This document shows positions 26,101-47,731 of a stretch of 64,000 bases of DNA, in pieces (positions within the stretch are counted from its first letter, which is position 1; each line of letters begins with the position of its first letter). A program made the translations under genes and the position numbers. Below the pieces are notes generated by a model, which saw nothing but the letters and a program-made list of their open reading frames with translations, searched no databases and was not told the DNA's origin. Source of the stretch: Candidatus Latescibacterota bacterium (GTDB lineage: Bacteria > Latescibacterota > UBA2968 > GCA-2709665); NCBI GenBank assembly GCA_965219455.1, contig OZ244744.1, positions 1,312,001-1,376,000 of the forward strand, read 5' to 3'.

Positions 26101-26605
26101 AACGGATCTCGTATCCCGTGATGTACGCGTCCTCAGGATCGGACCACGTCAGCGTCACTTCCGTCAACCCAGGCGACGCCCGGAGGCGTTTCGGCTCCGC
26201 AGGCGGCATCCTGACCGTCACCCTGGCCGATGCGCCGGGAACCTCCCCTGCCATCGCACGCACCTCGATCGTATACTCTTTACCGTTCCTCAACCCCACC
26301 ACCGTGTGCTCCGTCGTGTTCGCAGGGCTGTCAACGTAATGATCGTGGCTCCACTCAGGCATTGACGTACCGGTTTCCCAATAGCGGACCTGGTATCCCG
26401 TCACGCGGGGGTCTTCCGCAGCTACCCACCTCAGCCATACCATCCGGTCCAGGGCAATCGCTTCCAACTCGACCGGCGGCTCAGGCGACGGCGCCGTCCT
26501 CACCGTCACGCTGTCCGATGTGCCGGGAACCTCCCCCGCAACCGCGCGGAACGGGATGCGGAAGGCCAGAGGGACCACGGGCGGTTTGCGATGATCGGGT
26601 TGCAA
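20117..26605 (-). CDS. Giant fibronectin type III/putative Ig repeat surface protein with C-terminal dockerin-like module
   Basis: 2162 aa. Many VTLTW...GYQ/YEI...GLTNG.EYTFEVRA Fn3 units, a poly-Pro linker (~22740-22780), Ig repeats with SGG..PYTF, and C-terminal GDFNGDG...DLNGDGTINYADF. Confidence 0.9.
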   Translation of the reverse strand: MQPDHRKPPVVPLAFRIPFRAVAGEVPGTSDSVTVRTAPSPEPPVELEAIALDRMVWLRWVAAEDPRVTGYQVRYWETGTSMPEWSHDHYVDSPANTTEHTVVGLRNGKEYTIEVRAMAGEVPGASARVTVRMPPAEPKRLRASPGLTEVTLTWSDPEDAYITGYEIRYGVAGADRPAWSDDSVLEIGTTTIYTVVDLMSGTRYTFEVRAVAGEVPGASDSVTVRTAPPPPANLRGTVADGIVVLTWDAPALAAGSVTGYQVLWRFPGDNAEGGFRVLAATGAMVRTYTDEDVGFDDSIIYQVKAMYGETLSRGSAEVLVYVPAPPPRPEGLMATAGDGEVTLTWDVPGDHAITGYLVRYRTRVSGTLDSIVEDDVASGERTMTRTVEDLTNEVEYWFQVQLRNAGGYSEASRATATPGARQAAPDNLTALPGDGEVTLTWRDPENPYITRYQVRWAESSMALPEWSDAHIIGDSGPATTEHIVEGLNNGRKYTFEVRARVDDVEGLSASVTAVPVPDPPVWVGSPVVGDGAVTLTWVDPDDDAIIRYEIRYRANGAWDPDWTAIDPSGPNTTEHTVGNLTNGVEYRIQVRAVAGDYPGKTASVTVMLDVPPPAAPDNLTASAGDRAVTLTWDNLDTPDVTGYEIRYGVGEAPAEWTVISVSPEPGASTTTREVTGLTNGVEYTFQVRAISGDVHGLPASVRATPDLPPPRNLNASLVNGAVTLTWEAPATVAAPITGYRVLRRRPDVDAAGVSHSIGATGATETTYVDAGAEAGHSYVYRVKTQRDIYLSGSSNAARIDVPAPPPPPGNLTAREDDRMVTLTWADPEDDAITGYQVRYGDDPTSLPESWHDIAVTTTHPVPGLTNGIEYTFEVRAVAGAYPGAPASVTAMPGNRAPVNLEATIDNGTVVLTWEAPTADLASVTSYHFHYSLSSDGVNVMRHGIFGTPDADTRTVDTIARERGYPYIAYKVLASRGEEFSDWSNTVTVMFHTGPPPEGLNAAAGVGQVTLTWDDPSDTDISGYQYHRYRGSPPANPVWVDIDPNDAAARRHIVTGLTNGTVNTFEVRAVNATGPGARASVTVTLPPDAPAGLEASPGDRQATLTWDDPGDTDISGYQYHRYRGSPPANPVWLDIDPNDATARRHTVPGLTNGIEYTFEVRAKAGDDEGASARVTATPVPAKPANFRAASGNRKVTLTWSDPRDAAVIGYQLRYARSTLALPDWSEITDSGPNTTRHVVTGLTNRIEYTFEARAKAGMVHGDSARAMATPRQETVTPPPPPPPPPPPPPPCLAPGAVSNLNATAGVGQVALSWTNPSGTIIDNHVRYKVSDTPLWSTWTSIGETTTHTVQGLDVCEEYTFQVRAKNDCPNNSVGDADIATATTTGSVPGDVTNLNATAGVRQVVLSWTNPSGMITENRVRYAKSTVDLPENWTGIGLTTSHTVPNLNAGTAYTFEVLAWNPCGEGGSTSKTVTTLDEIRDLTITCPADQTVKEGATISLTATASGGTTPYTFDPLSISPSELTLGISTQPSNDGDRTISGTATPAGEYNVEVTVEDAPDSTATCSFEITVCEPVVIDPISNKTVPVNTRITITPHASGGCGSIKWSMTGAPGRLEIDRNTGVITGSVGDDVREYNVRVTARDMVNRNNTDDEDFMITVVCAPFVIREIQNMQVTPRTEIGLTASVIPACPTAEFSISGQPTGVGIVSDTGFIEGNVGPIEKTYDVTVTATDRDNRNNSDDEEFEIEVECPPITVTQNPDPVVVPAGETATVTVSAEGGCGTKTFGDPGGLGWVRKTGSNEYTVEPPSGTAPGPYTFGVTATDAEGNTGPGSINVTVTCPTITVGGLDNVKVEVDENMPSMTARASGGQSPYTFRKEIGPSWVTVSTGGAISGRAPNTTGTYLVTVKATDAGGCWGTTTFEIEVVDPPLEIADIRDVEATVGQEMPARAASASGGETPFAFTMSGKPSWVNFNRSSGRISGTPTSTGTSTATVTVTDKKGVTATTPSFQLRVSAPLTIASISDVVVTWQLDMDPIQVSVSGGRGSYTYDLESEPAGISISSSGRIGGTPTQLGSATVTVVVDDEDDRRVTTSFRMTVALPGDFNGDGRRDAADAALFNKKMGLGRSDAGFDRRMDLNGDGTINYADFVILTGYIESDAAAQSGQ

Positions 26606-27359: not shown

Positions 27360-27397
27360 AAAAAAAAGGAGCCGGAAAATCCGGCTCCTTTTTTTTC
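27360..27397. terminator. Bidirectional intrinsic terminator ending the methyltransferase operon
   Basis: A-tract-GGAGCCGGA-AAA-TCCGGCTCC-T-tract. Confidence 0.85.
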
Positions 27398-27416: not shown

Positions 27417-27689
27417 TTACTCTTTGCGACCCCGTTCGTCGTAAGCCCGTTCGAGGTCCTGTACGACCGCCTGCAGAACCACCCGCGGGTTGCCGGGACG
27501 CTCCTGACATTCGCTCCACTGCCAGTGCGCCAGGTACGCGTCCGTTCCGGCCAGACCCTCCTTCATCGCACGCCGGTCGATCGCCTCCTGAAACCTGGGC
27601 GGCATCTGCCGCGAAACGCGACGTCTACCGTCGAAGACCCGCACCTGCGCTGGGATATCCTTCCAGTAGAGCACCTGGTACTCGGCCAC
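27417..27689 (-). CDS. Small 'Virulence_fact'-family protein, often found with split methionine synthase genes
   Basis: YQVLYWKDIPAQV...RFQEAIDRRAM...DAYLAHW. Confidence 0.8.
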   Translation of the reverse strand: MAEYQVLYWKDIPAQVRVFDGRRRVSRQMPPRFQEAIDRRAMKEGLAGTDAYLAHWQWSECQERPGNPRVVLQAVVQDLERAYDERGRKE

Positions 27690-27752
27690 CTGTCACCCCT
27701 TCTCGCGTCTTCAGCGCCCCGCGTTTGGCCACTCGCCGGCGCCGGTCGTTTC

Positions 27753-28772
27753 TCAGGCGTTCCCGTTCTTCGCGGACCCCCCGTTCAACATCCCCCGGAA
27801 AGCCCGGATATGCGACGGACCCGTCCCGCAACAGCCTCCGACGATATGGGCGCCCGCGGCGATCAGATCGGGGACGGAGCGCGCCATATCCTCCGCCGTC
27901 TGGGAATACGTCGTCCGGCCGGTCTTTCTTTCCAGTTGCGGCAGCCCCGCGTTGGGATAGGCCATTAATCTGATCCCTTCAATTCCCCTGGCCTCCATCG
28001 CCTCCCGAAACTGCCGGATCCCGTTGATCGCGTATGACATTCCGGTATGTTCCACCCGCCGGGTCTCTGCGCCGCAGTTCATCCCGATGACGTGCACGTG
28101 ATCCAGGAGATTATCCCCGTCCGAAAACGCTCCGGAACTCAGGAATTCCAGAAGGCTCTCCGCTGAATGCCCCCAGTCCGTCCGGTAAATCACCTCGCCG
28201 GTCTTGCGGTCCTTCGTGTACTTGCAGGTCAGGTTTATGGCAACGGGCAACCCGGTCTTCCTGGCGACGTCCGCCACAATGGCGGCCTCCTTCGCGGAAA
28301 ACATGGTCTCGATGCAAATGAGATCCGCCTCTGCCTCCGCCAGCGCGTGGATCACCTGCTCGTGCGCCGCCCTGACCTTCCCGTCCGCGATACCGAACAC
28401 CGTATCCCCCGCGTCCGACTCGATAGCCCCCGGAGACGGACCGATAGAACCCGCAATATAGACGTCCCTGCCGCTCTTTTCGACTGCCGTTCTCGCGTGT
28501 TCCATGGCCAGCCGGGCAATCGCCCCGGCCTGGGACCCCTCTTTGCCCGCCATTTCCAGGTGCAGGGGCGAAGCGACGAACGTATTGGTCCCTATAACGT
28601 CGGTTCCCATTTCAATATAGGCAGAATGGATATCGACTACCGCAGCCGGATGCAATTCATTCGCAAGCGCGCTGTTCGTCAATTCGATACGCCCTTTGAA
28701 CAACTCCGAACCAAATCCCCCATCGTAAACCATCGGCCTGGAATCTTCCAACCGTTCGAGAAAAGTCTTCAT
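27753..28772 (-). CDS. Homocysteine S-methyltransferase (MetH Hcy-binding module)
   Basis: YDGGFGSEL, TNTF, AGSIGP, IETM, GMNC, YPNAGLP, VGGCCGTGPSHI (Zn ligands). Confidence 0.9.
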   Translation of the reverse strand: MKTFLERLEDSRPMVYDGGFGSELFKGRIELTNSALANELHPAAVVDIHSAYIEMGTDVIGTNTFVASPLHLEMAGKEGSQAGAIARLAMEHARTAVEKSGRDVYIAGSIGPSPGAIESDAGDTVFGIADGKVRAAHEQVIHALAEAEADLICIETMFSAKEAAIVADVARKTGLPVAINLTCKYTKDRKTGEVIYRTDWGHSAESLLEFLSSGAFSDGDNLLDHVHVIGMNCGAETRRVEHTGMSYAINGIRQFREAMEARGIEGIRLMAYPNAGLPQLERKTGRTTYSQTAEDMARSVPDLIAAGAHIVGGCCGTGPSHIRAFRGMLNGGSAKNGNA

Positions 28773-28791
28773 TTCCTTCCCAATTCCTCCC

Positions 28792-29838
28792 CTAACGGTA
28801 AACGTCCAGCGCGCCTTTTCGATAGGCACGCAGATAGCTCTTGCACATAGGATCGCGTCCCAGGAGCATGTCTTCCGCCAGCCGGTAGGGTTCCGTTTCC
28901 CGGTCCATGGAAAAAACGCGTTGCGGGCTGCTGGTTACGGGGTCGACAATCCCGCTGTCCGCTCCGGCCTCGACGGCCAGAATCGTGAACACGTCGTTGA
29001 TGAGACGCCGGCACGGCAGCCCGAATGACACGTTGCTGAACCCGCCCGTGACGTGAATCTCCGGGCCGAACGTCTCTCGAAGCCTCCGGATCGCCTCGAA
29101 ACTGTGATTACCGAACGTGCCGTCCACCGAGATCGGAAAGACCAGAATATCCACGAAGATATCCTGAATACCAATCCCCCGGGCAAGCGCCGCGTCCACC
29201 ATACGTGACGCATTGGCGACACGCTCTCCAGCGTCCTGAGGCATGCCGCTCCCCCCGGCAGCCGTCACAATCACCCTGGAATTGTAGCGCCGGGCCAGAT
29301 CCAGGGCTTCAAGGCGCTCCAGTGAGGCCGAGTTCAGCAGCGCACGGCCGGCCCTGCCGTCGCAGGCTTCCAGCCCCACCTGAATCGTTTCGACATTGGA
29401 GGAGTCCACGGACAGCGGAACCGGGCACACCTCCTGCACGGCCCGCACCAGCCATTGCATGGACGCCTTCTGATCGTCGAGGCGCAATGAGACTTCGTCC
29501 ACGTTCAGATCCAGGTAGCCCGCCGCCGCATCCACCTGGCGCTGCACCAGCCGGTGCAGGTACGCCAGCCCGTCACCTGCGTGCGGCTCCCGCCCGGACA
29601 TCGCCGCATGCAGGGCGATCTTCACGTATTTGACACGTCCCTCTTCGTAGTCCCGGGTCCGCTTGACATCTTCGGGAATCGTGAGGAAGCGTCGTTTCCT
29701 GTGCGTGTCGTAAAAGCGGACCGCCTCCACCCCCGCAGGACGCTTCACGACGAGCTTTCCCTTTCTGAGAACCACCCTTGTGGTGTGGATGTTCTCACCG
29801 ATCACGATAAACTCGCCGTCTCGACCGTCCAATTTCAT
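28792..29838 (-). CDS. Pterin-binding methyltetrahydrofolate:corrinoid methyltransferase (MetH folate module/AcsE-like)
   Basis: VIGENIH, LDLNVD, PLSVDSS, LLNSAS, GFSNVSFGLPCRRLIN. Confidence 0.88.
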   Translation of the reverse strand: MKLDGRDGEFIVIGENIHTTRVVLRKGKLVVKRPAGVEAVRFYDTHRKRRFLTIPEDVKRTRDYEEGRVKYVKIALHAAMSGREPHAGDGLAYLHRLVQRQVDAAAGYLDLNVDEVSLRLDDQKASMQWLVRAVQEVCPVPLSVDSSNVETIQVGLEACDGRAGRALLNSASLERLEALDLARRYNSRVIVTAAGGSGMPQDAGERVANASRMVDAALARGIGIQDIFVDILVFPISVDGTFGNHSFEAIRRLRETFGPEIHVTGGFSNVSFGLPCRRLINDVFTILAVEAGADSGIVDPVTSSPQRVFSMDRETEPYRLAEDMLLGRDPMCKSYLRAYRKGALDVYR

Positions 29839-29848
29839 CGGGTTGCCC

Positions 29849-31489
29849 TCATTTCACGCGGCCGTGGTGGTCCCGCTCCAGAAATGCGTTCGCCCATGCG
29901 CTCGTTCCCTTCAAGGCGCCGTCCTTGAAGACCGCCGGCCCGTCCAGCATCTTCTCTTCCTCTCCGTATGCCTTGAGCCGTTCGTAGGCCAGCGACCAGA
30001 TGCACGCCTTCTCCCCCACCTCGCATCGTCCGTTTCGCGTTCCGCCGCAGGGGCCGTTGCGCTGGTTCTTGACGCATTGCGACTCGGGGCAGAGAAACGC
30101 GATATCGGGGAGCGAGCAATCGCCGCAGTCCCGGCAATCGAAGCCCGGAATCTTCACCGCCTGCTCCGCTCCATGCACGGCCCTCCGGAGGCGGCTTCCG
30201 GCGCGATCCACGGCCTCGAAGAACTTCTTGCCGATACGAAAAGCGGGGCGACCCTTTTCGAAGACGTGTTCGTGCACGAAGCGGTTGACCTTGTAGCCCG
30301 TGGAAACGCGGCTCCTGGCGGCCCTCAACACCTCGGGATCCTTCGAATGGCGATACTGGCGGTTGACCTCGTCCGAACCCAACCCCGTCGACTCGTCGGG
30401 TTCGAAGAAAAAAAACTCGTCGGGCTGCTGGAAGAGAAACTCATGAACGAAGTCTTTCCAATCCGCTTCACCGAAGCCGCCGGAAATCTCCAGGATTCGC
30501 GCGTAGTCCTCGAACTTCAGGTGTCCGCCAAGATAAGCCCCGCGATATCCCAGCCCCCTGGCGATAGCGCACTGCTTCGCGGCGAACTCCAGGAAGAAGG
30601 CCTTGCCCTTGTCCCGGGAACGGGCGTGCTTCCGCGTCAGCGCGAGCAACTCATCGGTGACAATCACGCCGGGAATGTTGCCCGCGTGAAAAAACCTGGC
30701 CGACGCGGGGCTGAGCACGTACACGTTGGCCAACACCGGCGCCCGTAGATCCTGAAGGGCCATATACTTCAGCAACTCGTCCTGCTTGCGCGCGTCGTAC
30801 CCGATCTGGTTGATGATGAAACCGGCGCCGCTCTCAACCTTTTTCGCCAGCTTGAAATACTGCGGCATCACCTCGCGTTCGTATCGCTTGTGGTTGTTCA
30901 CCACCGCACCCAGAAAGAAATGCGTGGGTTTCAGAAGCTGTTCGCCTCTGCCGCCTTCGAGGCGCATACCGGAATTCATCTCCGAGAACATCTTCAACAG
31001 ACCAACCGAATCGGTATCGAACACGCCGCCTGCCTGCCCGCGATATCCGCTTGCGGGATAGTCGCCCGACAGCGCCAGCACGTTTTCGAATCCTTCGCTT
31101 GCAAGTTCCCAGCCTCTGCTCAGCAGCGCATTCCGGTTCCAGTCCTTGCACGAAACGTGAATGATGACCTCCTGCCCCCGACCGAGCAGGTCGATCCCCA
31201 TCGTGTCCGCGCTGTTCGTGGCATTCCCACCGGGATTGTCGGTAATGCTCAGGGCGTCCACGCCCGGATGGTCGGCAAGCGCTCGCGCGAGATCCAGAAC
31301 GTGGCGCCCGCGGCGCTCGGTAATCACCCCCCGGGAATTGACCAGTTCCACGCAGACGACGAACCCGTCCGTGTCCTGGATCAGGTCGCGCAGGGAGCGT
31401 TTCTTCGTCGCGCTCCGGCCGTGGTTCACTCTGTCGGGAGACGTGGCCATATGGATATTCTCAAGAAGTGATTCGACGTTACGCGTCAC
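29849..31489 (-). CDS. metF: Methylenetetrahydrofolate reductase with fused C-terminal Cys-rich MetV-like domain
   Basis: SITDNPGG, HVSCKDWNR, LALSGDYP, KKVESGAGFIINQIGYD; C-terminal CRDCGDC...CPESQCVKNQRNGPCGG...CEV...CIW. Confidence 0.85.
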   Translation of the reverse strand: MTRNVESLLENIHMATSPDRVNHGRSATKKRSLRDLIQDTDGFVVCVELVNSRGVITERRGRHVLDLARALADHPGVDALSITDNPGGNATNSADTMGIDLLGRGQEVIIHVSCKDWNRNALLSRGWELASEGFENVLALSGDYPASGYRGQAGGVFDTDSVGLLKMFSEMNSGMRLEGGRGEQLLKPTHFFLGAVVNNHKRYEREVMPQYFKLAKKVESGAGFIINQIGYDARKQDELLKYMALQDLRAPVLANVYVLSPASARFFHAGNIPGVIVTDELLALTRKHARSRDKGKAFFLEFAAKQCAIARGLGYRGAYLGGHLKFEDYARILEISGGFGEADWKDFVHEFLFQQPDEFFFFEPDESTGLGSDEVNRQYRHSKDPEVLRAARSRVSTGYKVNRFVHEHVFEKGRPAFRIGKKFFEAVDRAGSRLRRAVHGAEQAVKIPGFDCRDCGDCSLPDIAFLCPESQCVKNQRNGPCGGTRNGRCEVGEKACIWSLAYERLKAYGEEEKMLDGPAVFKDGALKGTSAWANAFLERDHHGRVK

Positions 31490-33113
31490 CGTGGCGATGA
31501 AAAACGGCTGGCATCGGCTTGAACTGGCAACCTTCCACGAACACCTCGAAGAAATCCGGTGTTGTCTCGAGTTCGATATGTTCGATCTGTTTCACCAGCG
31601 CCTCGGCGGACGCCCTCTTTTCACGGGAAAGCAGCACCTCCCGAGCCCCCTGGACCGCCGCGTTCCCGATCTTCACGACGCGGTCCTCCACGATTGGCGC
31701 CAGAAAACCGATCTCAATTGCATTTTGCACGTTCACGTAATTGGCGAATCCCCCGGCCAGGTAGAGCGTGTCGATATCTTCCGGCCCGATGCCGAGGTGT
31801 CGCATCAGGATAAACTGACCGCAGAAATTCGCCGCCTTGGCCTGCGCAAGATTGCTGGCGTCTTCACGGGACAGCGTAATCCCGTACTCCGGGACAACCG
31901 TCACCTCGTAGGACCTGTCCGCAAACATTCCCTTCGGCGCCATAAGGTCATGCCGCCTGAGTTCCGCCAGCAGATCGATCAACCCGGATCCGCATATTCC
32001 CTCCGGTTCAACGTGCCCGATGGTCTGGTATTCGAACCCGCCGTCTTTCAGCCGCATCGACTCGATGGCGCCTTCATGGCCGGGCATCCCGTACCGGATC
32101 AGGCCCCCCTCGAACGCGGGTCCGGCCGGACAGGAAGCGGTCAGCAATCGGTCGGGGCTTCCCACCACCACCTCGGTATTGGTCCCCACGTCAACAAGCA
32201 TCACCAGGCCATCCGCAGACGTCAGGTCCATCGCCACGAGGTCGGCCGCGGTATCCGCCCCCACGTGGCTGGCAATCAGCGGCATCCCGTATACCTTCGC
32301 CCGCGGATTGGCGCGCAGCCCCAGGCGCCGGGAACCCTGCAGCAGCGACGTCGTTTCCCGTTCACCCTCGAGATAGGCATGTTCCACGCCGGATTTGTAC
32401 GGTCTCTGGCCGATGCTCTGCACATCCAGCTTGAAGAAGATGTCCCGCATCGTGGAGTTTGCCGCCACAACCACCTCGTAAATCTCCTGGCGTACAAACC
32501 CGAAGCGTTTTCCCAGTTCAAGGATTTCGTGGTTGATCGCGTTGACAACCGTCTTCTGCAGTTCGCCCTGAAACTCCCCGTCGTAGGAGATGCGGTTCAT
32601 CACGTCGCTGCCGCCGAAGCGCTGGGGATTCTCGAAGGAACTCACGTGGACGCTCTTCCCGGTGGCCAGGTCCACAAGATCCATTACCACTGTTGTCGTG
32701 CCCAGATCGATCGCGATGCCGAACAGGTGGCCACGATACCTGTCAACGGCCACACCGTCGTAATAAACAACGTCCCCCCGGCGCGTGACCAGGGGGTCCG
32801 GATCGAGGGGTTTTTCCAGGGTACTGGAGAGAATCTTGGGCTTGCGTCTCAGCGGCGAGAATTCGATATCGGCCCCGGCGTCTTCGACCACCGCCTGGCA
32901 GGCGAGGCGGTAATCCTCCCGCAAGAACGACTCCACGTCGTTTCGGGGTCGCAACGCGTCCATCCCGCACCTGATTTCAACCACACACTCGTGGCAGTGT
33001 CCGGTGCGCCCGCACGACGTGGGCACCTGAACCGCCAGTTCATCCGCATAGTCAAAAACCGTCTTCCCGGCTGCCAGCGCCCTCCTGTTCCCGTCGTGAG
33101 TTATGGTACCCAT
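31479..33113 (-). CDS. ASKHA-type ATP-dependent reductive activator of corrinoid proteins (RamA/RACo-like) with N-terminal 2Fe-2S domain
   Basis: SCGRTGHCHEC...RLACQA ferredoxin domain; IAIDLGTTT, VDVGTNTE, AGPAFEGG, GICGSGLID, LAGGFANY. Confidence 0.9.
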   Translation of the reverse strand: MGTITHDGNRRALAAGKTVFDYADELAVQVPTSCGRTGHCHECVVEIRCGMDALRPRNDVESFLREDYRLACQAVVEDAGADIEFSPLRRKPKILSSTLEKPLDPDPLVTRRGDVVYYDGVAVDRYRGHLFGIAIDLGTTTVVMDLVDLATGKSVHVSSFENPQRFGGSDVMNRISYDGEFQGELQKTVVNAINHEILELGKRFGFVRQEIYEVVVAANSTMRDIFFKLDVQSIGQRPYKSGVEHAYLEGERETTSLLQGSRRLGLRANPRAKVYGMPLIASHVGADTAADLVAMDLTSADGLVMLVDVGTNTEVVVGSPDRLLTASCPAGPAFEGGLIRYGMPGHEGAIESMRLKDGGFEYQTIGHVEPEGICGSGLIDLLAELRRHDLMAPKGMFADRSYEVTVVPEYGITLSREDASNLAQAKAANFCGQFILMRHLGIGPEDIDTLYLAGGFANYVNVQNAIEIGFLAPIVEDRVVKIGNAAVQGAREVLLSREKRASAEALVKQIEHIELETTPDFFEVFVEGCQFKPMPAVFHRHGDA

Positions 33114-33121
33114 GCGGCGTC

Positions 33122-33397
33122 CTAGTCCTTGCTCCCGACGAACGCACCCTGTTTCGCCTCCGTCTCCCACGCGCCGCGATAGTCCAGCTTGTCGTCTCCG
33201 CCGCACATCAGCAGCGTTCCGCCCGGACGGGGCTTCCGCTGATTTCTGCAGCCGAACCTGGCCGTACACTCGTCGAAACGGTTCTTGTACGGGCAACGCA
33301 CGGTGGACAGTTCATCGGCATGGGCGATCATGCCGGCGAACAGCTCCGTGATCCTATCCAGCCGTTTCTGATAGTCGTCTCTGTCGATCTTTCGCAT
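33122..33397 (-). CDS. Small Cys-rich hypothetical protein
   Basis: ATG at 33397, tightly packed in the operon. Contains RCPYKNRFDECTARFGCRNQ...MCGGD. Confidence 0.7.
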   Translation of the reverse strand: MRKIDRDDYQKRLDRITELFAGMIAHADELSTVRCPYKNRFDECTARFGCRNQRKPRPGGTLLMCGGDDKLDYRGAWETEAKQGAFVGSKD

Positions 33398-33405
33398 GGT
33401 CGGGC

Positions 33406-34176
33406 TCACGCGTTCAGGTTGGTCTCTTCCTTCATCTCGTCCAGCAGTTGTTTGGCCAGGTCCACGCACGCCATCGCATCCTTGCCGTACCCGTCGGCGC
33501 CCATATCGTCGGCGAATTCCTGGGTGACTGGCGCCCCCCCCACCATAATTTTCACGTCTTCCCGCAAGTCGGCATCGATGAATGCCTCAATCGTTTTGCC
33601 CATATTGGGCATGGTTGTCGTCAGCAGCGCCGACATCCCCAGCAGCGGCGCGCCGTGTTCCTCCACGGCATCCATGAATTCGTCTTCCGACGTGTCCACT
33701 CCCAGATCGTGGACGACAAACCCGGTGCCGCGAAGCATCATAATGCAGAGGTTCTTTCCGATATCGTGCAGATCGCCCTTTACCGTGCCCATAATTACCG
33801 TTCCGACCGGCTCGATGCCCGACGCGGAGAGAATGGGTTCGATATACGCCATGCCGGCCTTCATCGCCCGGGCGCAGGCCAGCACTTCCGGAACGAAGAT
33901 GAAATTTTCGCGAAACTTGATCCCCACAATGCCCATTCCCGCGATCAACCCGTCGTCCATCACCTCCAGCGCCTCGGTGCCTGCATCCAGGGCGACCCTG
34001 GTCAATGCGTCCACCTCGTGATGGGCGCCGTCGATCAAGGCCGCGGCAATCGCCTGCATTTTCGGACTGACTCCGGCAAACGTGTCGATCGTCCGCTCCC
34101 GCTCGTCTTCCCGCTCCAGAAACTCCTCGATCTCGTCGCGGATGAATTCGTTTTCGATATCGTTGATTTCCGCCAT
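33406..34176 (-). CDS. Corrinoid (B12-binding) methyl-carrier protein
   Basis: Cap domain GLIAGMGIVG..F...FVPEVL; GTVKGDLHDIGKN; MSALLTTT; MVGGAP. Confidence 0.93.
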   Translation of the reverse strand: MAEINDIENEFIRDEIEEFLEREDERERTIDTFAGVSPKMQAIAAALIDGAHHEVDALTRVALDAGTEALEVMDDGLIAGMGIVGIKFRENFIFVPEVLACARAMKAGMAYIEPILSASGIEPVGTVIMGTVKGDLHDIGKNLCIMMLRGTGFVVHDLGVDTSEDEFMDAVEEHGAPLLGMSALLTTTMPNMGKTIEAFIDADLREDVKIMVGGAPVTQEFADDMGADGYGKDAMACVDLAKQLLDEMKEETNLNA

Positions 34177-34263
34177 CGTGTTCCTGTCCCTTTCGACCCG
34201 CCATCGCCGCTCGCGAAAATGAGCGATACTGGATTCCCTTGATACCTGCTCCGTTCCGATCAG

Positions 34264-35310
34264 TTAGTTCGCCGCCTGTTCCCGGTGCCAGTCCCGGACC
34301 GCCCCGGGAATTTCCTTAAGGTTCTCTATTGACGTCTGCAGCGGTATCGCGCACTCAGGTCCGACGAGGTGTACACCGGCGTCCAGGTTACTGAAGACCT
34401 CCTGGCGGACCGCTTCGGGCCCTTTTGAAAACAGCGTTTCGGGATTGTTGATGTTGCCCACCAGCGAGATCCGCTCCTTCACCGCCGCCATGGACTCTCC
34501 CGGCTCGTTTTTCGAGTCGTAATGGAACGCGGACATCCCCGTCTGCGCGATATACTCCATCCGATCCACCGTCCGCCCGCAGATGTGCAGAATCAGCGGA
34601 ATCGGAATCCGCTCCACGAATTCGATGTGCAGATCCCGAAGATACCGCTTGTAATACTCCCCGCTCACCAGGTCGCCCGTCGCGTGATCGGGCAGCGTGA
34701 GCGCATCCGCGCCCGCCTCGATCTGCGCCACCCCGAAATCCACCGTGACTTCCTTCATCCTGTCCAGGCATGCCTTCGTCTTGTCCGGGTCGTCCAGCGA
34801 CATCAGCAGAAAGGGTTCCACGCCGAAACAGTGATATCCCAGCGACCAGGGGCCCATCGTCTTCCCGATGATGGCCACGTCATCCCCGAATTCCTTTTTC
34901 AGAATCCGGATCGCATCCAGCACGCACTTCGTATCCTGGTGCGTGAGCAGGTCGGCCGGAATCCGGATGTCGTCCACGTCCTCCCAGATGGGCTCGCGCA
35001 TCTTCACCGTGGGCCAGTTGTCTTTCTGCTCCCACTGAACCTTGCAGCCAAGCGCCGCCGACTCCTGGATAATTGTAAACACGGGCATGATCGTATCGAA
35101 CCCCAACTCGGTATGCCCCGTCGCGGCAAGCCGCGCCATCAGTTCCGGGTTCCTGTTCGCGTCCGGGAAAGGCGCGTCCACGAGATCCATCAGTTCCACC
35201 GTTGCCACGGATGTCGGATTGCAAACCGGCGTCCGGTCCACCGGCTCTCTCTTCAACGCCGCCAGAACACGCTCGCGGCTGGTCATCGGACCCGCGGTTT
35301 GAGTCCCCAT
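34264..35310 (-). CDS. MtaA/CmuA-family (uroporphyrinogen decarboxylase fold) methyltransferase
   Basis: SRERVLAAL...VDRTPV, ESAALGC, AQIEAGAD, ILHICG, VGNIN, GPECAIP. Confidence 0.88.
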   Translation of the reverse strand: MGTQTAGPMTSRERVLAALKREPVDRTPVCNPTSVATVELMDLVDAPFPDANRNPELMARLAATGHTELGFDTIMPVFTIIQESAALGCKVQWEQKDNWPTVKMREPIWEDVDDIRIPADLLTHQDTKCVLDAIRILKKEFGDDVAIIGKTMGPWSLGYHCFGVEPFLLMSLDDPDKTKACLDRMKEVTVDFGVAQIEAGADALTLPDHATGDLVSGEYYKRYLRDLHIEFVERIPIPLILHICGRTVDRMEYIAQTGMSAFHYDSKNEPGESMAAVKERISLVGNINNPETLFSKGPEAVRQEVFSNLDAGVHLVGPECAIPLQTSIENLKEIPGAVRDWHREQAAN

Positions 35311-35357
35311 TTTTCTGGCCTCCTGTCCAAAACCTTGTTTGTGCTGCACGGCGGCGC

Positions 35358-35987
35358 TTACCTTTGCTGGCTGGGTGCGGCCAGAACGCCGCGGGACCCC
35401 GCCGTGTCCTGCTCACGAACCGCCGCCCGGACGTTCGGGGCGCGAACGAGAAGCAGTCCCACCGCCGCGTCGTGGTCGTATCCGCACGAAAACGCGACCG
35501 TGTCCAGACTCCGGGATTGCATTTCTCCAAGCTTGACCAGCCCGCCGGCAACCACCGGGATCCTTCGTGCTCCGTCTTTACCCTCACCTTCGGCGCCGAC
35601 GCGGTACGCACCCTCCCCCAGGCCGGACACCGTCATATTCAAACCCGACTTCCTGTCGAGGATCGTCAACGGGCGAGCGACAACCTCGGTTCCGGACGCC
35701 AGCTTGCACGCTTCCAGAAAAATACGCCGGCAGGCCGGTTCGTGCGCCTCTCCGCACGGAAGGCGCAGCAGCCCGTCGGGTGCTCGCTCCATGCCGCCGA
35801 GCACCGTCATCGCGTCCGCGACAAACGCGATTCGCTCGTCTGACCCGGTTCTTCCGCTATACGTGTACACGCGATACACGGGACCCCCGTCCCGCTCCTG
35901 CCGGTACAGCCCGATCGTGATTTCATGAAAATGCGGATCCATCGGCACCAGTTCGATGCGCGTTCCGATATCGAGTGTTCGGCCCAT
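35358..35987 (-). CDS. Hypothetical protein, first gene of the methyltransferase operon
   Basis: GGAGG RBS followed by ATG at 35987; co-oriented with the operon. No family recognised. Confidence 0.7.
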   Translation of the reverse strand: MGRTLDIGTRIELVPMDPHFHEITIGLYRQERDGGPVYRVYTYSGRTGSDERIAFVADAMTVLGGMERAPDGLLRLPCGEAHEPACRRIFLEACKLASGTEVVARPLTILDRKSGLNMTVSGLGEGAYRVGAEGEGKDGARRIPVVAGGLVKLGEMQSRSLDTVAFSCGYDHDAAVGLLLVRAPNVRAAVREQDTAGSRGVLAAPSQQR

Positions 35988-36055
35988 CGCGCCATCCTCC
36001 GGCAAGTTTTCTCTTGACAGCAGGGAACCCGGTCTGTTCTTTTGCTATTGTGATG

Positions 36056-36109
36056 ATGGTCAGACCAATTCTGGACTATAAGATTAACCCAAAAGCGGAT
36101 CTTTGTAAA
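36056..36109 (-). promoter_or_regulatory. Operon promoter with downstream FadR-subfamily operator
   Basis: Minus-strand TTTACA (36104-36109)-17 bp-TAATCT (36081-36086). Palindrome TGGTCAGACCA at 36057-36067. Confidence 0.7.
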
Positions 36110-36203
36110 GCGAAAACTTGCCGTCGTGACAGATTGTTGGCCCCGTACAACCGGGATCGTATTTTAATAGTTATAAAATAAAGATTTACAAAGGGATGAT
36201 CAC

Positions 36204-36971
36204 GTGAATCGCCAACGGAAGGCCCCGGCCGTCGAGCAGATGACGCCCGTCAGGCGCACCTCCCTGAGCGACGAAATTGTCGCTCAGATCATCGACCTGA
36301 TCTCCCGGGACGTGCTGAAACCGGGCGATCGGCTGCCGCCGGAAAGAAGCCTGTGCAAACAATTCCACGTCGGCCGGACCTCCCTGAGGGAAGCGCTGCG
36401 CTCCCTCTCCGTAATGGGTATCCTGGAAGGCCGCGTCGGCGAGGGCACGTTCGTTAGCGACAACACCGGCCGATACCTGGAAAATTCCCTCCGATGGGGT
36501 CTGCTGCTGGACCCGAAGGAAGTCAAGGATCTCGTGGAGACCCGGCTCATGCTGGAAACCCGGAACGCATTTCTGGCCGCGAGGCGCGCAACTGAAGATG
36601 ACTTCCTGGAACTCGAACGGACAATCCTTGGAATCGAAGCATCTCTCGACCGGCCCGCGGAATTCCTGGAATTCGACGTTCAATTCCACATGGCCGTTGC
36701 CCGGGCCACACAGAATTCGATCCTCTGCAACCTTCTTGTGATGATCCGCAACTACCTTCAGCAGTGGATCGGAGCCAGCCTGGAGGAACCCGCAACCCAC
36801 ACGGTGGAAGCGCGCGCCCGGATGTCGCTGGATGAACACGGGGAAATCCTGCGCGCCCTCCGGGATGGCGATGCCGAAGCCGCGCAGCAGGCCATGGAAG
36901 ACCACATTCTGTCCAGCAGCGTGGACCTGCGGGCGCGGATCAAGGAAGATTCCGAAAACCGATCGGAGTGA
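36204..36971 (+). CDS. GntR/FadR-family transcriptional regulator
   Basis: LKPGDRLPPERSL..FHVGRTSLREAL HTH; FCD domain FDVQFHMAVARATQN. Confidence 0.93.
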   Translation: MNRQRKAPAVEQMTPVRRTSLSDEIVAQIIDLISRDVLKPGDRLPPERSLCKQFHVGRTSLREALRSLSVMGILEGRVGEGTFVSDNTGRYLENSLRWGLLLDPKEVKDLVETRLMLETRNAFLAARRATEDDFLELERTILGIEASLDRPAEFLEFDVQFHMAVARATQNSILCNLLVMIRNYLQQWIGASLEEPATHTVEARARMSLDEHGEILRALRDGDAEAAQQAMEDHILSSSVDLRARIKEDSENRSE

Positions 36972-37022: not shown

Positions 37023-37886
37023 CTAAATTCGGGACAGAACACGAGCCACCGTTTTTGAAAACCCGTCATCCTCCAGCGACTCGGCCATCCGCACCCCCGC
37101 AGCTGCGGCGGAATCCCTCGTCAGGCTATCCGCGTTTCCCATCAGCACGCCAATGCCCGCCGCCCCCAACATCGGAAGATCGTTGTCCCCGTCCCCGACC
37201 GCCAGCGCCTGCGAAGGGGAAACGTCGCACGCCTCGCAAAGCTTCCGCAGTGCCACCGCTTTGTTCACCTCCGGATGCATAATTTCGATCCGGTCATTCC
37301 CCGTACGAGCCAGATAGAACCGTCGCCCGAACGCCGCCTGCATTCCCGCGAACACCTCTTCCCTCCGCGACGGCCCAGGCAGTACGATCATCTTCGGCGG
37401 CGGACCAAGTTCCCGCCGCTGCATCCTGTCGAACAGATGCTCGTCAAGCAGGATATCCACGCCCGTCATACGAACCAGATTTCGAACCCACTCTGTCTCC
37501 TCGTCGGTCAGATAGGATTCGTTCAGGCCGTGACTGTCCGTCTCGCACCGGCAGTAGATGAAATTCAACCGCCAATCGGCGATTAAACGCAACAGATCGG
37601 GAAGACCATCCCGCGGCAATCGCTGTTCGTGCAACAACGGCCGCTCGTTGTCCGGCCCGTTTCCCAGTACCATCGCTCCATTGTAGCTCCCCACCATCAG
37701 CGCCGCCCTCAGATCGGGCGAAAACGGCGCCAGGCTTTTCCCCACGTTTCGTCCGCTGATAGAAGCCAGGGGAATTTCTGCTTTTATCAGACGCCGAAGC
37801 GCGTCGACCGAAGCTCCTGAAATCCGGCCCCTGTCGTCGAGCAGCGTGCCATCCAGATCAAACGCCACCAGCCGCACGTCACCCAT
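37023..37886 (-). CDS. Cof-type HAD hydrolase
   Basis: FDLDGTLL, VNKAVAL, VGDGDNDLPML. Confidence 0.9.
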   Translation of the reverse strand: MGDVRLVAFDLDGTLLDDRGRISGASVDALRRLIKAEIPLASISGRNVGKSLAPFSPDLRAALMVGSYNGAMVLGNGPDNERPLLHEQRLPRDGLPDLLRLIADWRLNFIYCRCETDSHGLNESYLTDEETEWVRNLVRMTGVDILLDEHLFDRMQRRELGPPPKMIVLPGPSRREEVFAGMQAAFGRRFYLARTGNDRIEIMHPEVNKAVALRKLCEACDVSPSQALAVGDGDNDLPMLGAAGIGVLMGNADSLTRDSAAAAGVRMAESLEDDGFSKTVARVLSRI

Positions 37887-37921
37887 TTTGCCTCTCTCTC
37901 GGCGACACCCCGAGACTCGAT

Positions 37922-38938
37922 TCAGAATTCCGTCACCACCTTCGCGGGCTTACCGGTTTTGATCGATTCCGCCACCGCGAAACACGCAGCCATCGTCCGC
38001 GCGCCGTCCCTTACGTCGATCGTTGGCGCCTCACCCGTATCCAGGCAGTGCAGGAAATGCGACAGTTCCTCGCCGCAGGCGTGCACTTCGCCCAGCACCG
38101 GGAACGGGATATCCGCGAATGCCTCGATTTCTCCGAATTCCTTCAGATAGAGCCGGTTCTCCTCCACCGTACCCTCCGTTCCGTACAGATTGAACGTCAT
38201 GGAATACGGACGGGGTGCTCCCACGGAAACCAGGCACTTTCCAACCGCGCCGTTCCTGAACTTCAACGACGCAATCACCGTGTCGTGCCAATCCACGTCG
38301 TGCAGGACCTTCGTGACGCCGTAGGCCGATACCTCCTCCAGTTCCCCCACAATCCAGCGCATCAGGTCCAGCGGATGGCACGCCCCGCCGATCACCGCGA
38401 ATTGCCCTTCGCCACGGTGCCGCCACCACTGGTGTCCCGGACCCCGCAGGAACGGCCCCAGCGAATGCACGTAATCCGACTCGCAGAAACAGGCCTCTCC
38501 AAGCTTGCCGGAAACGTACAGATCCTTCACCGCCCGGTGCAACTGTCTGAAACGCGCCCCATGCCCCACCATCAACTGCCGGCCGGACCGTTCGACCGCG
38601 GCAACCATCCGACGGCAATCCCGCAACGTGGTCGCCATGGGCTTTTCGCAGAACACGTGCTTGCCGGCCTCCAACGCCGCCACGGCCTCATCGGCATGCA
38701 GCCGGTTCGGCGTGCAAAGATAGACCACGTCGACCGCTTCGTCCGAAACAATCTCGCCGTAGTCCGTCGTCACCCTTTCGGCCCCGTATTCCGCCTTCAT
38801 CTCCTGCAATCGACCCGCGCTGCGCTCCGATCCACAGATCGCACGCAACCTGGCCTGCGGATGCCCCGCAATCGCCTTGATATGCTCCAGGCCGATATAC
38901 CCTGTACCCACGACCGCGATTTGGTATTCCAATGCCAC
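37922..38938 (-). CDS. Gfo/Idh/MocA oxidoreductase
   Basis: VVGTGYIG, CTPNRLH, GKHVFCEKPM. Confidence 0.9.
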   Translation of the reverse strand: MALEYQIAVVGTGYIGLEHIKAIAGHPQARLRAICGSERSAGRLQEMKAEYGAERVTTDYGEIVSDEAVDVVYLCTPNRLHADEAVAALEAGKHVFCEKPMATTLRDCRRMVAAVERSGRQLMVGHGARFRQLHRAVKDLYVSGKLGEACFCESDYVHSLGPFLRGPGHQWWRHRGEGQFAVIGGACHPLDLMRWIVGELEEVSAYGVTKVLHDVDWHDTVIASLKFRNGAVGKCLVSVGAPRPYSMTFNLYGTEGTVEENRLYLKEFGEIEAFADIPFPVLGEVHACGEELSHFLHCLDTGEAPTIDVRDGARTMAACFAVAESIKTGKPAKVVTEF

Positions 38939-46186: not shown

Positions 46187-46196
46187 AACGAAATCC

Positions 46197-47728: not shown

Positions 47729-47731
47729 CGC

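Follow-up and report, generated by a model that had tools for sequence, protein, structure and literature searches.

Nine co-directional, tightly spaced genes on the minus strand, between positions 27417 and 35987 of the window (the whole 64-kb stretch of DNA analysed), form one regulated operon for corrinoid-dependent methyl transfer, in which an MtaA-like zinc methyltransferase is accompanied by a 209-aa protein of a new family. Our preferred reading, which we hold at about even confidence, is that a methylthio or methylseleno compound methylates the corrinoid protein and that the methyl group moves onward to homocysteine and, here, also to folate; we infer both the donor and the direction of transfer. 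Pfam and NCBIfam profile searches, together with direct reading of the terminator, bear out the natures of the nine genes given in an initial annotation, as well as the operon's own regulator and terminator. The features are as follows:

27360..27388, minus strand: intrinsic terminator, read directly (8-bp GC-rich stem GGAGCCGG / CCGGCTCC, 5-nt loop, T8 run)
27417..27689, minus strand: Virulence_fact small protein (PF13769, 78.8 bits)
27753..28829, minus strand: zinc homocysteine S-methyltransferase, MtgE/MetH-module type (PF02574, 178.8 bits)
28792..29838, minus strand: pterin-binding methyl-H4folate:corrinoid methyltransferase, MtgD/AcsE/MetH-module type (PF00809, 75.4 bits)
29849..31489, minus strand: MTHFR fused to a MetV-like DUF5981 domain (PF02219, 32.3 bits; PF12225, 88 bits)
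31479..33113, minus strand: RACo/RamA-type ATP-dependent reductive activase with a 2Fe-2S ferredoxin domain (Fer2, Raco_middle, RACo_C_ter; open frame to 33296, likely start 33113)
33122..33397, minus strand: small Cys-rich protein with four invariant Cys (open frame to 33469, likely start 33397)
33406..34176, minus strand: corrinoid (B12-binding) carrier protein (Pfam B12-binding_2 and B12-binding)
34264..35307 (end also given as 35349), minus strand: MtaA/CmuA-family zinc methyltransferase, URO-D fold (PF01208, 230.5 bits)
35358..35987, minus strand: 209-aa partner of the MtaA-like enzyme, new family without Pfam/NCBIfam match
36057..36067, no strand assigned: operator-like palindrome TGGTCAGACCA in the intergenic region 36005-36204
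36204..36971, plus strand: GntR-family regulator carrying an FCD ligand domain, transcribed divergently from the operon (Pfam GntR 69.5 bits, FCD 87.7 bits)

The arrangement is far beyond chance, since the synteny survey called for by the initial annotation found all nine genes together in 17 of 80 related loci, whose genomes carry the labels of several phyla, and the first two genes together in all 80. The terminator lies directly beyond the stop codon of the operon; its hairpin is absent from the list of a consensus terminator scan, and because an A-run flanks it, it is possibly bidirectional. At the other end, the regulator has NanR, LldR and PdhR as its nearest NCBIfam models, all under their cut-offs, and adjoins the partner/MtaA-like pair in 40 of the 80 loci. 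The palindrome occurs once in the window and presumably resembles FadR/PdhR-type boxes, and the same TGGTNNNACCA box lies between regulator and first gene in 19 of 41 regulator-bearing loci. The operon is probably controlled by this GntR/FCD repressor, which would sense a carboxylate, a ligand that we infer. The RNA evidence consists only of RNA-library contigs from relatives and falls short of proving transcription.

The corrinoid carrier (median identity 84.5% across 45 loci) is the only methyltransferase-type one in the genome; the other strong B12-binding match is of the mutase type, since it lies beside MeaB. RACo is present in single copy by tblastn and a search of the genome for the MetH activation domain PF02965 found none, which agrees with the earlier proposal of ATP-type reactivation without that domain. 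The Cys-rich protein is present as annotated but is better described as a detachable N-terminal domain of the activase: many relatives carry it fused in frame to RACo in proteins of 630-653 aa. The four Cys of its C-x8-C-x5-C-x14-C pattern are invariant in 23 sequences, and its AF2 model is of low confidence (pLDDT 69).

The gene content also supports the proposed link to both methionine and folate. The homocysteine methyltransferase carries MNCG and GGCCG Cys motifs, as read in translation, and the MTHFR-MetV fusion is the sole PF02219 match in the genome. The pterin-binding protein, with 195.9 bits against NF005719 (under the 259 cut-off), is the only MeTr-type enzyme in the genome; the only other Pterin_bind match, at 280.7 bits, we take to be dihydropteroate synthase. 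In 35 of 80 loci, and likewise in marine loci, the Virulence_fact gene has the pterin-binding or the homocysteine methyltransferase gene as a neighbour, and it thus travels with MetH-type modules. The initial annotation had seen no recognisable MtaB, MttB or MtgB, and this holds, with MttB absent from the whole 5.84-Mb genome.

Much of this is familiar. Phaeobacter inhibens has a three-part split MetH reactivated by RACo/RamA (Price 2018, PMC5764234), and in Ruegeria pomeroyi a hub of MtgBCDE, MetF2, RamA and DUF1638 feeds folate and methionine (Mausz 2025, PMC12478193), the logic of its bidirectional pterin enzyme and MetF2 being shown genetically in the portion of that paper used here. As far as the sections consulted of the two papers describe them, these aerobic bacteria have, like the present operon, a stand-alone corrinoid protein common to donor, bidirectional pterin and homocysteine methyltransferases, an extra MetF, and an ATP-type RamA/RACo that replaces the SAM domain, and classical MetH is often lost. 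By sequence, about six of the nine genes match these systems (among them corrinoid protein, pterin-binding methyltransferase, homocysteine methyltransferase, extra MTHFR and RamA/RACo activase), so the operon is in part an already characterised pathway, an outcome that the initial annotation had named as counting against its proposal. The donor module differs: in the parts of PMC12478193 drawn on, the Ruegeria donor enzyme is MtgB (MttB family, glycine betaine), whereas here it would be an MtaA-family zinc enzyme with the 209-aa partner. DUF1638 was looked for and is absent here, a Cys-rich domain being attached to or beside RACo instead; MTHFR is fused to a MetV-like domain, and all genes lie in one regulated operon.

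Is the operon, then, simply a split methionine synthase plus MTHFR, with the pair as an accessory (in cofactor loading, repair or removal of a wrongly placed methyl, for example) that has no link to another substrate? The genome lacks a classical MetH, so carrier, pterin enzyme and homocysteine enzyme must double as a split methionine synthase, and its only MTHFR, MeTr-type enzyme, methyltransferase corrinoid protein and activase all lie in the operon. That a split MetH can work with a RamA-like activase is well documented (PMC5764234), and the MtaA-like gene is near-universal and single copy in the class (126 of 131 genomes; median conservation 84%), as expected of a housekeeping gene. We nevertheless give this reading a slim chance. 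The split synthase of Phaeobacter and Ruegeria runs without an MtaA-like protein as described in PMC5764234 and PMC12478193, and the main text of PMC12478193 does not mention 'MtaA' at all (0 occurrences). Moreover, many genomes retain the pair, corrinoid protein, RACo and homocysteine methyltransferase beside full-length MetH, and the strictly conserved catalytic zinc site argues for a substrate-turning enzyme.

A central question is what this enzyme acts on. The UroD-fold MtaA-like protein appears from gene content to be the only candidate donor-side enzyme of the operon, a role for which it had already been put forward. It scores 251.9 bits against TIGR01463 (cut-off 235.4), falls under the NCBIfam MtaA and MtbA equivalog cut-offs, and aligns full length with M. 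mazei MtaA (PDB 4ay7, E 2.5e-55). H241, C243 and C319, which make up a His-Cys-Cys zinc site, and D264 are invariant in 33 of 33 aligned sequences. His-Cys-Cys marks UroD-superfamily S-methyltransferases and, it is argued, Se-methyltransferases, and O-demethylases of the superfamily lose one or both Cys (Kountz and Balskus, sections of PMC10418091). Since the site is invariant, a sulfur or selenium substrate is favoured over a methyl halide or ether; of the donor types first suggested, the sulfur compound gains and the halide loses ground. The motif would still accommodate halides, since CmuA, a methyl-halide enzyme, is presumably also a zinc protein.

The pair could instead act as an MT I, in the manner of O-demethylases or CmuA, and demethylate O-methyl sugars, inositols, aromatics or methyl halides. 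Direct substrates of UroD-superfamily MT I include methoxy-aromatics (for MtvB, OdmB, VdmB and MtoB) and haloalkanes (for CdmB, CmuA and MecC/E), and the CmuA/CmuB, CdmBCA and four-component O-demethylase systems share the layout of UroD-fold MT I acting directly on the donor, corrinoid protein, pterin-binding MT II and activating enzyme (PMC13222342, in part). In the source's order, moreover, the cluster continues from GFO/IDH/MocA oxidoreductase and Cof-type HAD phosphatase genes, so an O-methyl sugar would suit it; in three genomes of the genus g11 an inositol-dehydrogenase-like GFO and the Cof-type HAD phosphatase lead into the partner, with an 18-nt gap between tblastn hits, and other hydroxy-acid dehydrogenases recur nearby in other lineages. 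We consider this reading distinctly unlikely, however. Invariant His-Cys-Cys is the signature of sulfur and selenium (PMC10418091, in part); in the same portion of PMC13222342, the MT I of these systems have an incomplete Cys-Cys zinc site or no zinc at all (the haloalkane enzyme CdmB is zinc-free), delivery is only to folate, and CmuA, unlike the protein here, is fused to its own corrinoid domain. The sugar-type neighbours are restricted to one order (GFO2 and HAD each in 12 of 80 loci, GFO1 in 9), and the MtaA alignment stands far above the next PDB matches, uroporphyrinogen decarboxylases at E 1e-15 or weaker.

Methylthiol systems of Methanosarcina, which besides MtpA/MtpC include MtsA/MtsB and MtsD/F/H, use MtaA-family His-Cys-Cys zinc enzymes that act directly on a methyl thioether and a corrinoid protein and are not known to need an MtaB/MttB-type activating subunit. 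They belong to strict anaerobes, deliver their methyl groups to coenzyme M and are not known to involve a partner subunit. In the present operon a homocysteine methyltransferase (plus folate) would take the acceptor role, the hosts seem to be aerobes and the MtaA-like enzyme has an obligate partner. A precedent among the Methanosarcina systems is MtpA, a specific methylthio-compound:cob(I)alamin methyltransferase of the MtaA family that requires a second methyltransferase for the acceptor (10.1101/548461, in the part consulted). Type 1 mlp clusters are also similar: they encode bacterial His-Cys-Cys proteins of the MtaA-like (SCMT-like) type together with a corrinoid protein and an activase of the RACE/Ram type, have a proposed sulfur or selenium substrate and lack a folate methyltransferase. 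They differ in encoding two or three different Mlps, in obligate anaerobes that are mostly Firmicutes, and neither a homocysteine methyltransferase module nor the 209-aa partner is in their Results description (all from portions of PMC10418091); the single MtaA-like protein here has much stronger MtaA similarity.

Direction is a further consideration. Moving a methyl group from a thioether onto Co(I) is thermodynamically uphill (a point made for MMPA in part of 10.1101/548461), so the MtaA-like enzyme could equally be acceptor-side. The pair would then work like methanogen MtaA, passing the methyl group of the carrier to a thiol, sulfide or selenide; the carrier would receive its methyl group from methyl-folate or, with the reaction running backwards, from methionine, and a methylthio metabolite would be made, or sulfur or selenium volatilised, without SAM. 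The closest solved relative is indeed a methylcobamide:thiol methyltransferase, transfer from methyl-Co(III) to a thiol is the favourable direction (same part of 10.1101/548461), in vitro an Mlp from Clostridium transfers the methyl group of methylcobalamin to selenide (PMC10418091, in part), and the operon here holds its own methyl-folate supply. In clusters without the pterin enzyme, however, the carrier could be loaded only from methionine via a reversed homocysteine enzyme, which is also uphill, and the homocysteine methyltransferase of the conserved core fits better as a methyl acceptor route than as a donor. On balance we regard acceptor-side action as unlikely.

The first gene had been annotated as an unknown protein, and Pfam and NCBIfam searches indeed gave zero family matches, as did a fold search with its AF2 model (pLDDT 88.4) no significant match; it is, however, no bystander. 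Its open frame spans 35358-36005; since 80 relatives begin at the ATG at 35987, that codon is most likely the genuine start. In all 80 related loci the partner gene is directly followed by the MtaA-like gene, with the hit ends of the pair less than 100 nt apart in 68. A subfamily about 30% identical to the partner (hhalign probability 100, E 3e-46) occurs up to about 1.3 kb upstream of an MtaA-like gene (64-72% identical) in 16 of 17 marine metagenome loci, which also hold the corrinoid and Cys proteins, with RACo in the three loci reaching that far. Cys/His motifs are missing in a few members (L043, L047, L073), so the partner has no universal metal site. A model of the partner with the MtaA-like enzyme passed its controls, scoring 0.79 against 0.00 for the best of 3; among solved complexes 116 of 157 attain that mark, among mismatched pairs 2 of 215, counts that hold only roughly here since the alignments were custom. 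At least 4% of contacts are shared between the runs, with partner pLDDT at least 78, and one of the three scored 0.16, which counts against the pair. On the MtaA-like side the modelled interface comprises the invariant segments 37-46, 94-98 and 322-331, the last just after the zinc ligand C319. The protein is thus best described as an obligate, predicted binding partner of the MtaA-like enzyme.

Across lineages, the constant core is partner, MtaA-like enzyme, corrinoid protein, Cys-domain/RACo and homocysteine methyltransferase. Five genomes with a lone pair keep the rest of it (corrinoid protein, Cys, RACo and homocysteine methyltransferase) elsewhere. Within g11, the MtaA-like gene is found in 20 of 21 genomes and a PF02965 match in 21 of 21, with an open frame of about 1220 aa in each among the matches listed. 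Three g11 genomes show the order GFO-HAD-partner-MtaA-CP-Cys/RACo-HcyMT; the 20-kb stretches fetched from them contain no MTHFR and no pterin gene, and the only thing in these genomes that matches the pterin enzyme is the domain within MetH. A congener of the source genome has both MetH and all nine genes. Across lineages, no gene for a substrate, a transporter or a catabolic step that would point to a donor is conserved beside the cluster, which counts against the preferred reading.

We hypothesize that the operon encodes an MtgBCDE-type hub in which three methyltransferases share one B12 carrier, while the RACo/RamA activase maintains that carrier in active form with ATP and a reductant. In the donor step, a heterodimer of the MtaA-family enzyme and its 209-aa partner would move a methyl group onto the Co(I) of the carrier, candidate donors being methanethiol, dimethylsulfide and 3-methylthiopropionate; in the acceptor step, the methylated carrier would yield methionine via the homocysteine methyltransferase. 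In this lineage, the pterin-binding methyltransferase would exchange methyl groups with tetrahydrofolate, and the MTHFR-MetV fusion would connect that exchange to methylene-folate. The earlier proposal that the system feeds both folate and methionine thus stands for this operon, but the folate/MTHFR module is a lineage-specific add-on to a core that leads to homocysteine and that, being kept beside full-length MetH and without a stand-alone pterin methyltransferase, is independent of MetH.

Nine open reading frames lie head to tail on the minus strand, from 36005 down to 27417, and are listed here in the direction of transcription with their family matches and flanking elements.

Features of the corrinoid methyl-transfer operon and its flanks
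36204-36971, divergent from the operon: GntR/FCD regulator
35358-36005, minus strand: first gene (partner protein), without Pfam or NCBIfam match
34264-35349, minus strand: URO-D-fold MtaA/CmuA-family methyltransferase (TIGR01463 251.9 bits, cut-off 235.4)
33406-34176, minus strand: corrinoid protein (Pfam/NCBIfam; PF02607 and PF02310)
33122-33469, minus strand: small Cys-rich gene, without Pfam or NCBIfam match
31479-33296, minus strand: RACo-type activase with N-terminal 2Fe-2S ferredoxin domain (Fer2, Raco_middle and RACo_C_ter)
29849-31489, minus strand: MTHFR fused to a MetV-like DUF5981 domain (Pfam/NCBIfam)
28792-29838, minus strand: pterin-binding methyltransferase (PF00809)
27753-28829, minus strand: homocysteine S-methyltransferase (PF02574)
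27417-27689, minus strand: Virulence_fact protein (PF13769)
27360-27388, directly past the last stop codon: terminator, hairpin and T8, read by eye

Alignment with relatives moved three starts, to 35987 for the 209-aa partner, 33397 for the Cys-rich protein and 33113 for the RACo activase, and once these corrected starts are applied the intergenic gaps are 0-90 nt or slight overlaps. The terminator is not among the elements listed by a consensus promoter/terminator scan, though it is visible by eye. A palindrome at 36057, TGGTCAGACCA, occurs once within the window, and this box is kept in 19 of the 41 related loci that carry the regulator. The initial annotation had described a nine-gene corrinoid methyl-transfer operon with its own regulator and terminator, and the reading frames, family matches, GntR/FCD gene and hairpin-T8 of that description are all seen.

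Which of these proteins would bring a methyl group into the operon? The second gene encodes a protein that also exceeds the PRK06252 family cut-off (264.1 bits vs 244) and can be aligned over its full length with MtaA of M. mazei (PDB 4ay7, E 2.5e-55). It scores below the cut-offs for MtaA proper, the methylcobamide:CoM methyltransferase (NF040654, 243 bits vs 400), and for MtbA (NF041608, 202.1 bits vs 600). By these profile scores it is a member of the MtaA/CmuA family and not an orthologue of MtaA or MtbA. There are 3147 homologues at E ≤ 1e-20, the best 120 of the 3147 sharing 83-95% identity, and a tblastn search of plasmid sequences gave no match above 27% identity and none of CmuA type. 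Residues H241, C243, C319 and D264 are invariant across 33 aligned sequences, and the first three line up with the HxC...C motif of 4ay7, which provides the zinc ligands of MtaA.

The window's protein keeps both cysteines, which speaks against its belonging to the corrinoid O-demethylase and haloalkane MT I enzymes (OdmB, MtvB, CdmB and CmuA), of whose members replaced Cys ligands or absent zinc, and a clade apart from the CoM methyltransferases, would be expected. Kountz and Balskus (PMC10418091) describe His-Cys-Cys as the mark of UroD-superfamily S-methyltransferases, argue that it marks Se-methyltransferases too, and report that O-demethylases replace one or both cysteines; the haloalkane enzyme CdmB is described as being without zinc (PMC13222342). 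The latter source further names MT I enzymes of the UroD fold that work on the donor directly, and the lack of MtaB/MttB therefore does not imply the lack of a donor enzyme. A direct precedent for a donor-side enzyme of this family is MtpA of Methanosarcina, an MtaA-family protein reported to be a specific methylmercaptopropionate:cob(I)alamin methyltransferase that depends on a second methyltransferase to serve the acceptor (10.1101/548461). A Type 1 mlp cluster requires at least Mlp2 and Mlp3 beside a corrinoid protein and Ram/RACE, whereas the window's genome holds this one MtaA-like gene besides hemE.

The gene preceding the MtaA-like gene was followed through 80 related loci from a species-level genome collection (one genome per species), drawn from a search in which at least 513 of the 601 candidate stretches were confirmed. 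In all 80 loci the gene immediately upstream of the MtaA-like gene is the 209-aa one, with hit ends less than 100 nt apart in 68 of them, and the taxa given in the record titles are Latescibacterota, Poribacteria, Acidobacteriota, Gemmatimonadota and Opitutales. The partner family is small: a profile search of 1.84 billion representatives returned 281 proteins of about 200-230 aa or fragments, with no informative fusions among them; one 345-aa match with a URO-D start was considered as a fusion and looks like read-through. A distant subfamily, about 30% identical (hhalign probability 100, E 3e-46), is present in marine metagenome contigs, and in loci gathered with one of its members as query it is followed within about 1.3 kb by an MtaA-like gene (64-72% identical) in 16 of 17 cases. 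The corrinoid and Cys-rich proteins then follow, as does RACo in the three marine loci that reach that far, and the homocysteine methyltransferase and Virulence_fact genes often lie upstream of the distant partner.

The AF2 model of the partner is confident (pLDDT 88.4). Searches for relatives gave a best E of 0.09 against the PDB (Foldseek), a best Z of 6.8 over 87 residues against 48,161 chains (VIA-align), which is inside that tool's stated noise, no usable match in the ESM Atlas, and no match in Pfam or NCBIfam. Two FPCGxxH motifs and repeated secondary structure hinted at an internal duplication, to which a BLASTP comparison of the two halves (E 0.67) lends no support. A complex model of the partner with the MtaA-like protein scored 0.79, the best of three controls scoring 0.00; this mark is reached by 116 of 157 solved complexes vs 2 of 215 mismatched pairs, counts that are rough, custom alignments having been used. 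The runs share at least 4% of contacts with a partner pLDDT of at least 78, and one of the three scored 0.16. The modelled interface involves the invariant segments 37-46, 94-98, 288-296 and 322-331 on the enzyme side, the last just past zinc ligand C319. On the partner side it takes in the N-terminal sheet together with the beginning of the C-terminal tail (RGVLxAPSQQ), which is strictly conserved. The complex model supports binding of the partner to the MtaA-like protein, and we conclude that the two probably make up one enzyme, whose substrate site the partner may shape or gate.

Which other genes accompany the pair formed by the partner and the MtaA-like gene? Presence in the 80 loci was scored with identity floors of 40%, or 45% for the homocysteine methyltransferase, GFO and GntR, which keeps paralogues out. 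Downstream of the pair, the corrinoid protein is found in 45 loci, the Cys-rich protein in 44 and RACo in 44; MTHFR and the pterin enzyme each occur in 38, the Virulence_fact protein in 35, the homocysteine methyltransferase in 19 and the regulator in 40, and the full nine-gene set is present in 17. The pair stands alone in 28 loci, each with at least 3 kb of sequence downstream, and all five lone-pair genomes checked carry a separate operon of corrinoid protein, Cys-rich protein, RACo and homocysteine methyltransferase. Median identity is highest for the corrinoid (84.5%) and MtaA-like (84.1%) proteins and lower for RACo (72.8%), MTHFR (68.7%), the homocysteine methyltransferase (64.9%), the pterin enzyme (64.6%) and the partner (57.6%).

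The MtaA-like gene is found in 140 of 168 genomes surveyed from the window's phylum and in 126 of the 131 among them from its class, always as one match, and the MetH activation domain PF02965 has a match in 68 of the 168 phylum genomes, 66 of them over the cut-off. In g11, a genus of the same phylum, the MtaA-like gene is found in 20 of 21 genomes and PF02965 in all 21, within an open frame of about 1220 aa in each genome listed. Three g11 genomes carry the order GFO, HAD, partner, MtaA-like, corrinoid protein, Cys/RACo and homocysteine methyltransferase, with no MTHFR, pterin or Virulence_fact gene within the 20-kb stretches examined; in these three, as in two lone-pair genomes, the pterin enzyme has no match other than the pterin domain of MetH. 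In a congener of the window, all nine genes occur together with PF02965, the latter in a 1352-aa open frame. The constant core comprises the partner, MtaA-like protein, carrier, activase and homocysteine methyltransferase, and is retained even by genomes that already have a methionine synthase. In such genomes without a separate pterin enzyme, only the MtaA-like heterodimer besides the homocysteine methyltransferase can load or unload the carrier. This is the main argument that the pair would link the carrier to another substrate. The window's folate/MTHFR module is an addition to the core, and it let this genome lose MetH. Five further genomes (G173-G177, those of loci L024, L027, L029, L032 and L035) have the full cluster and a stand-alone PF02965 whose open frame spans about 281-291 aa, so that two reactivation routes may exist there.

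The Cys-rich protein has four invariant cysteines (C-x8-C-x5-C-x14-C) and corresponds to the N-terminal portion of a 630-653-aa RACo in many relatives, for which reason we count it as part of the activase, where it probably serves as a module for a metal or an Fe-S cluster. The AF2 model of the Cys-rich protein is weak (pLDDT 69, pTM 0.37) and unfit as a search query.

The window sits in one 5.84-Mb contig of a 100%-complete genome, in which PF02965, the MttB family PF06253 (MtgB type) and DUF1638 (PF07796) have no match. The operon holds the sole MTHFR, the sole RACo and the sole MeTr-type pterin enzyme of this genome; the other Pterin_bind match, at 280.7 bits, is presumably dihydropteroate synthase. 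A second methyl carrier was sought in the genome's one other strong B12-binding protein, which adjoins MeaB and is hence mutase-type. Given the missing MetH activation domain and the sole-copy MTHFR, pterin enzyme, carrier and RACo, the operon must also act as the B12-dependent methionine synthase of this genome. Four single-domain MetE-like (PF01717) proteins of 333-413 aa (own-genome loci L003-L006) all fall under the NCBIfam methionine-synthase equivalog cut-offs (best 246.6 vs 406). About nine more stand-alone PF02574 homocysteine S-methyltransferase paralogues are scattered over the genome (tblastn; e.g. L106:6528-7400 and L107:6666-7601), and such an expansion is unusual and might indicate that there are several donors or acceptors of methyl groups.

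Several other features of the window and its relatives were observed. The stretches 20117-26605 and 14726-20030 contain a 2162-aa protein with about 12 fn3 domains, He_PIG domains and a C-terminal dockerin, adjoining two large WD40-repeat proteins; eukaryote-like repeat proteins of the fn3/WD40 kind are known from sponge symbionts. Positions 46000-54000 have a GC content of 0.49-0.55 vs about 0.60, with an AAA_15/AbiEii-like ATPase (47732-49066) and several reading frames without family; a mobile or defence island is a possible explanation. There is also a DDE transposase at 775-2142. Close relatives of the operon, mostly 90-99% alike, are represented by contigs from RNA libraries (four libraries, from four studies), which span the junctions from the homocysteine methyltransferase through the pterin enzyme to MTHFR, from the corrinoid protein to the MtaA-like gene, and from the MtaA-like gene through the partner to the regulator. 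As contigs cannot show transcription, strand or ends, and such libraries can contain DNA, these are a hint only. One RNA-library contig joins window position 27699 to 28490, and a close relative appears to be without most of the homocysteine methyltransferase gene in this interval.

How does this operon compare with known corrinoid hubs? In Phaeobacter inhibens, fitness genetics identified a methionine synthase made of three genes (PF02574, PF00809 and B12-binding), reactivated by a RamA-like protein bearing a ferredoxin domain and a DUF4445 domain, and by a DUF1638 protein (Price et al. 2018, PMC5764234). In Ruegeria pomeroyi, MtgC and the bidirectional pterin enzyme MtgD are common to methionine synthesis (MtgE) and glycine betaine demethylation (MtgB, of the MttB family), a second MetF, MetF2, oxidises methyl-folate, and genomes with this type of hub are often without classical MetH (Mausz et al. 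2025, PMC12478193). The window resembles both in having the carrier, pterin methyltransferase and homocysteine methyltransferase as three separate genes, and a ferredoxin-bearing RACo activase in a genome without PF02965; about six of its nine genes are counterparts of MtgC, MtgD, MtgE, MetF2 and RamA. It is unlike the Ruegeria hub in that its genome is without MtgB and the DUF1638 accessory, the MtaA-like and 209-aa proteins holding the donor place. Two earlier proposals, that RACo replaces the SAM-dependent reactivation domain and that methyl groups are supplied to both folate and methionine, are right but, given the work of Price et al. (PMC5764234) and Mausz et al. (PMC12478193), not new. 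The hub is of a known kind. For the donor module, in which an MtaA-family enzyme and its obligate partner from a new family would pass methyl to the homocysteine methyltransferase in apparently aerobic hosts, literature searches found no paper describing the pair. The main text of PMC12478193 has zero mentions of MtaA, uroporphyrinogen, Poribacteria or SAR202, and its supplements (Dataset S2 and a neighbourhood figure) might show such clusters.

In the proposed mechanism, the MtaA-like·partner enzyme would transfer methyl from R-S-CH3 or R-Se-CH3 to the Co(I)-carrier, giving R-SH and CH3-Co(III)-carrier. The methyl-carrier would convert homocysteine to methionine and, in the window, would also exchange methyl between H4folate and CH3-H4folate, with the MTHFR-MetV fusion connecting to CH2-H4folate. 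Co(II) would be repaired by RACo with its Cys domain, and the GntR/FCD protein would bind the palindrome at 36057 in response to a carboxylate. Thioether-to-cobalt methyl transfer is uphill (10.1101/548461), and for this reason the main rival to the first step is the reverse direction, in which the pair methylates a thiol or selenide from the methyl-carrier. The preferred reading is a methylthio or methylseleno donor, and for the methylthio case MtpA is a precedent. Because the pair is small, predicted soluble and highly conserved, the donor question is directly testable in vitro.

Neighbouring genes are weak, lineage-bound hints to the donor. In g11 relatives, a GFO/IDH/MocA oxidoreductase and a Cof-type HAD phosphatase precede the partner gene (L125:17293-19812, L126:1-2466 and L127:17942-19897), and, with 18 nt between the tblastn hits in L126, they probably share an operon with the partner. 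Such sugar-type GFO and HAD neighbours are found in the window's order; in the window itself, GFO and HAD genes at 37023-40066 lie upstream of the operon and are separated from it by the inserted regulator gene. Three divergent marine metagenome loci have a short PGDH/glyoxylate-reductase-like 2-hydroxyacid dehydrogenase 28-85 nt after RACo (L112:14048-15055, L123:12666-13667 and L124:12491-13492) and a divergent alpha/beta hydrolase upstream of the cluster, and Ldh_2 genes occur near the cluster in some relatives. The interval between RACo and MTHFR repeatedly holds, in one lineage, a gene for a PhyH-type Fe/2-oxoglutarate dioxygenase (L022:14542-15216, L027:15293-16090 and L032:14128-14925), other insertions at this place being transposases and restriction-modification genes. 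Operon insertions were considered as a substrate clue and, being mostly mobile or restriction genes and the recurrent PhyH, name no substrate.

We tentatively propose, as a possible if rather doubtful reading in its full detail, that the heterodimer is a hitherto undescribed aerobic demethylase of a methylthio compound from DMSP or methionine salvage, e.g. converting 3-methylthiopropionate to 3-mercaptopropionate, or acting on methanethiol/DMS. Joined by the carrier, activase and homocysteine methyltransferase, it would amount to a methionine synthase that depends on B12 but not on folate. Such a system would belong to the core traits of Poribacteria-type sponge symbionts and be present also in Acidobacteriota, Gemmatimonadota, Opitutales and deep-sea lineages. 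If the preferred methylthio or methylseleno reading is right, hundreds of uncultured species would turn an environmental methyl-sulfur (or methyl-selenium) compound directly into methionine and C1-folate via B12, adding a sink to the marine and soil organosulfur cycle and giving sponge symbionts another need for cobalamin. A methanogen-type enzyme would then have a partner from a new protein family, and the 2025 finding that one corrinoid protein is common to methionine synthesis and methyl-donor catabolism would extend beyond glycine betaine to a second donor class.
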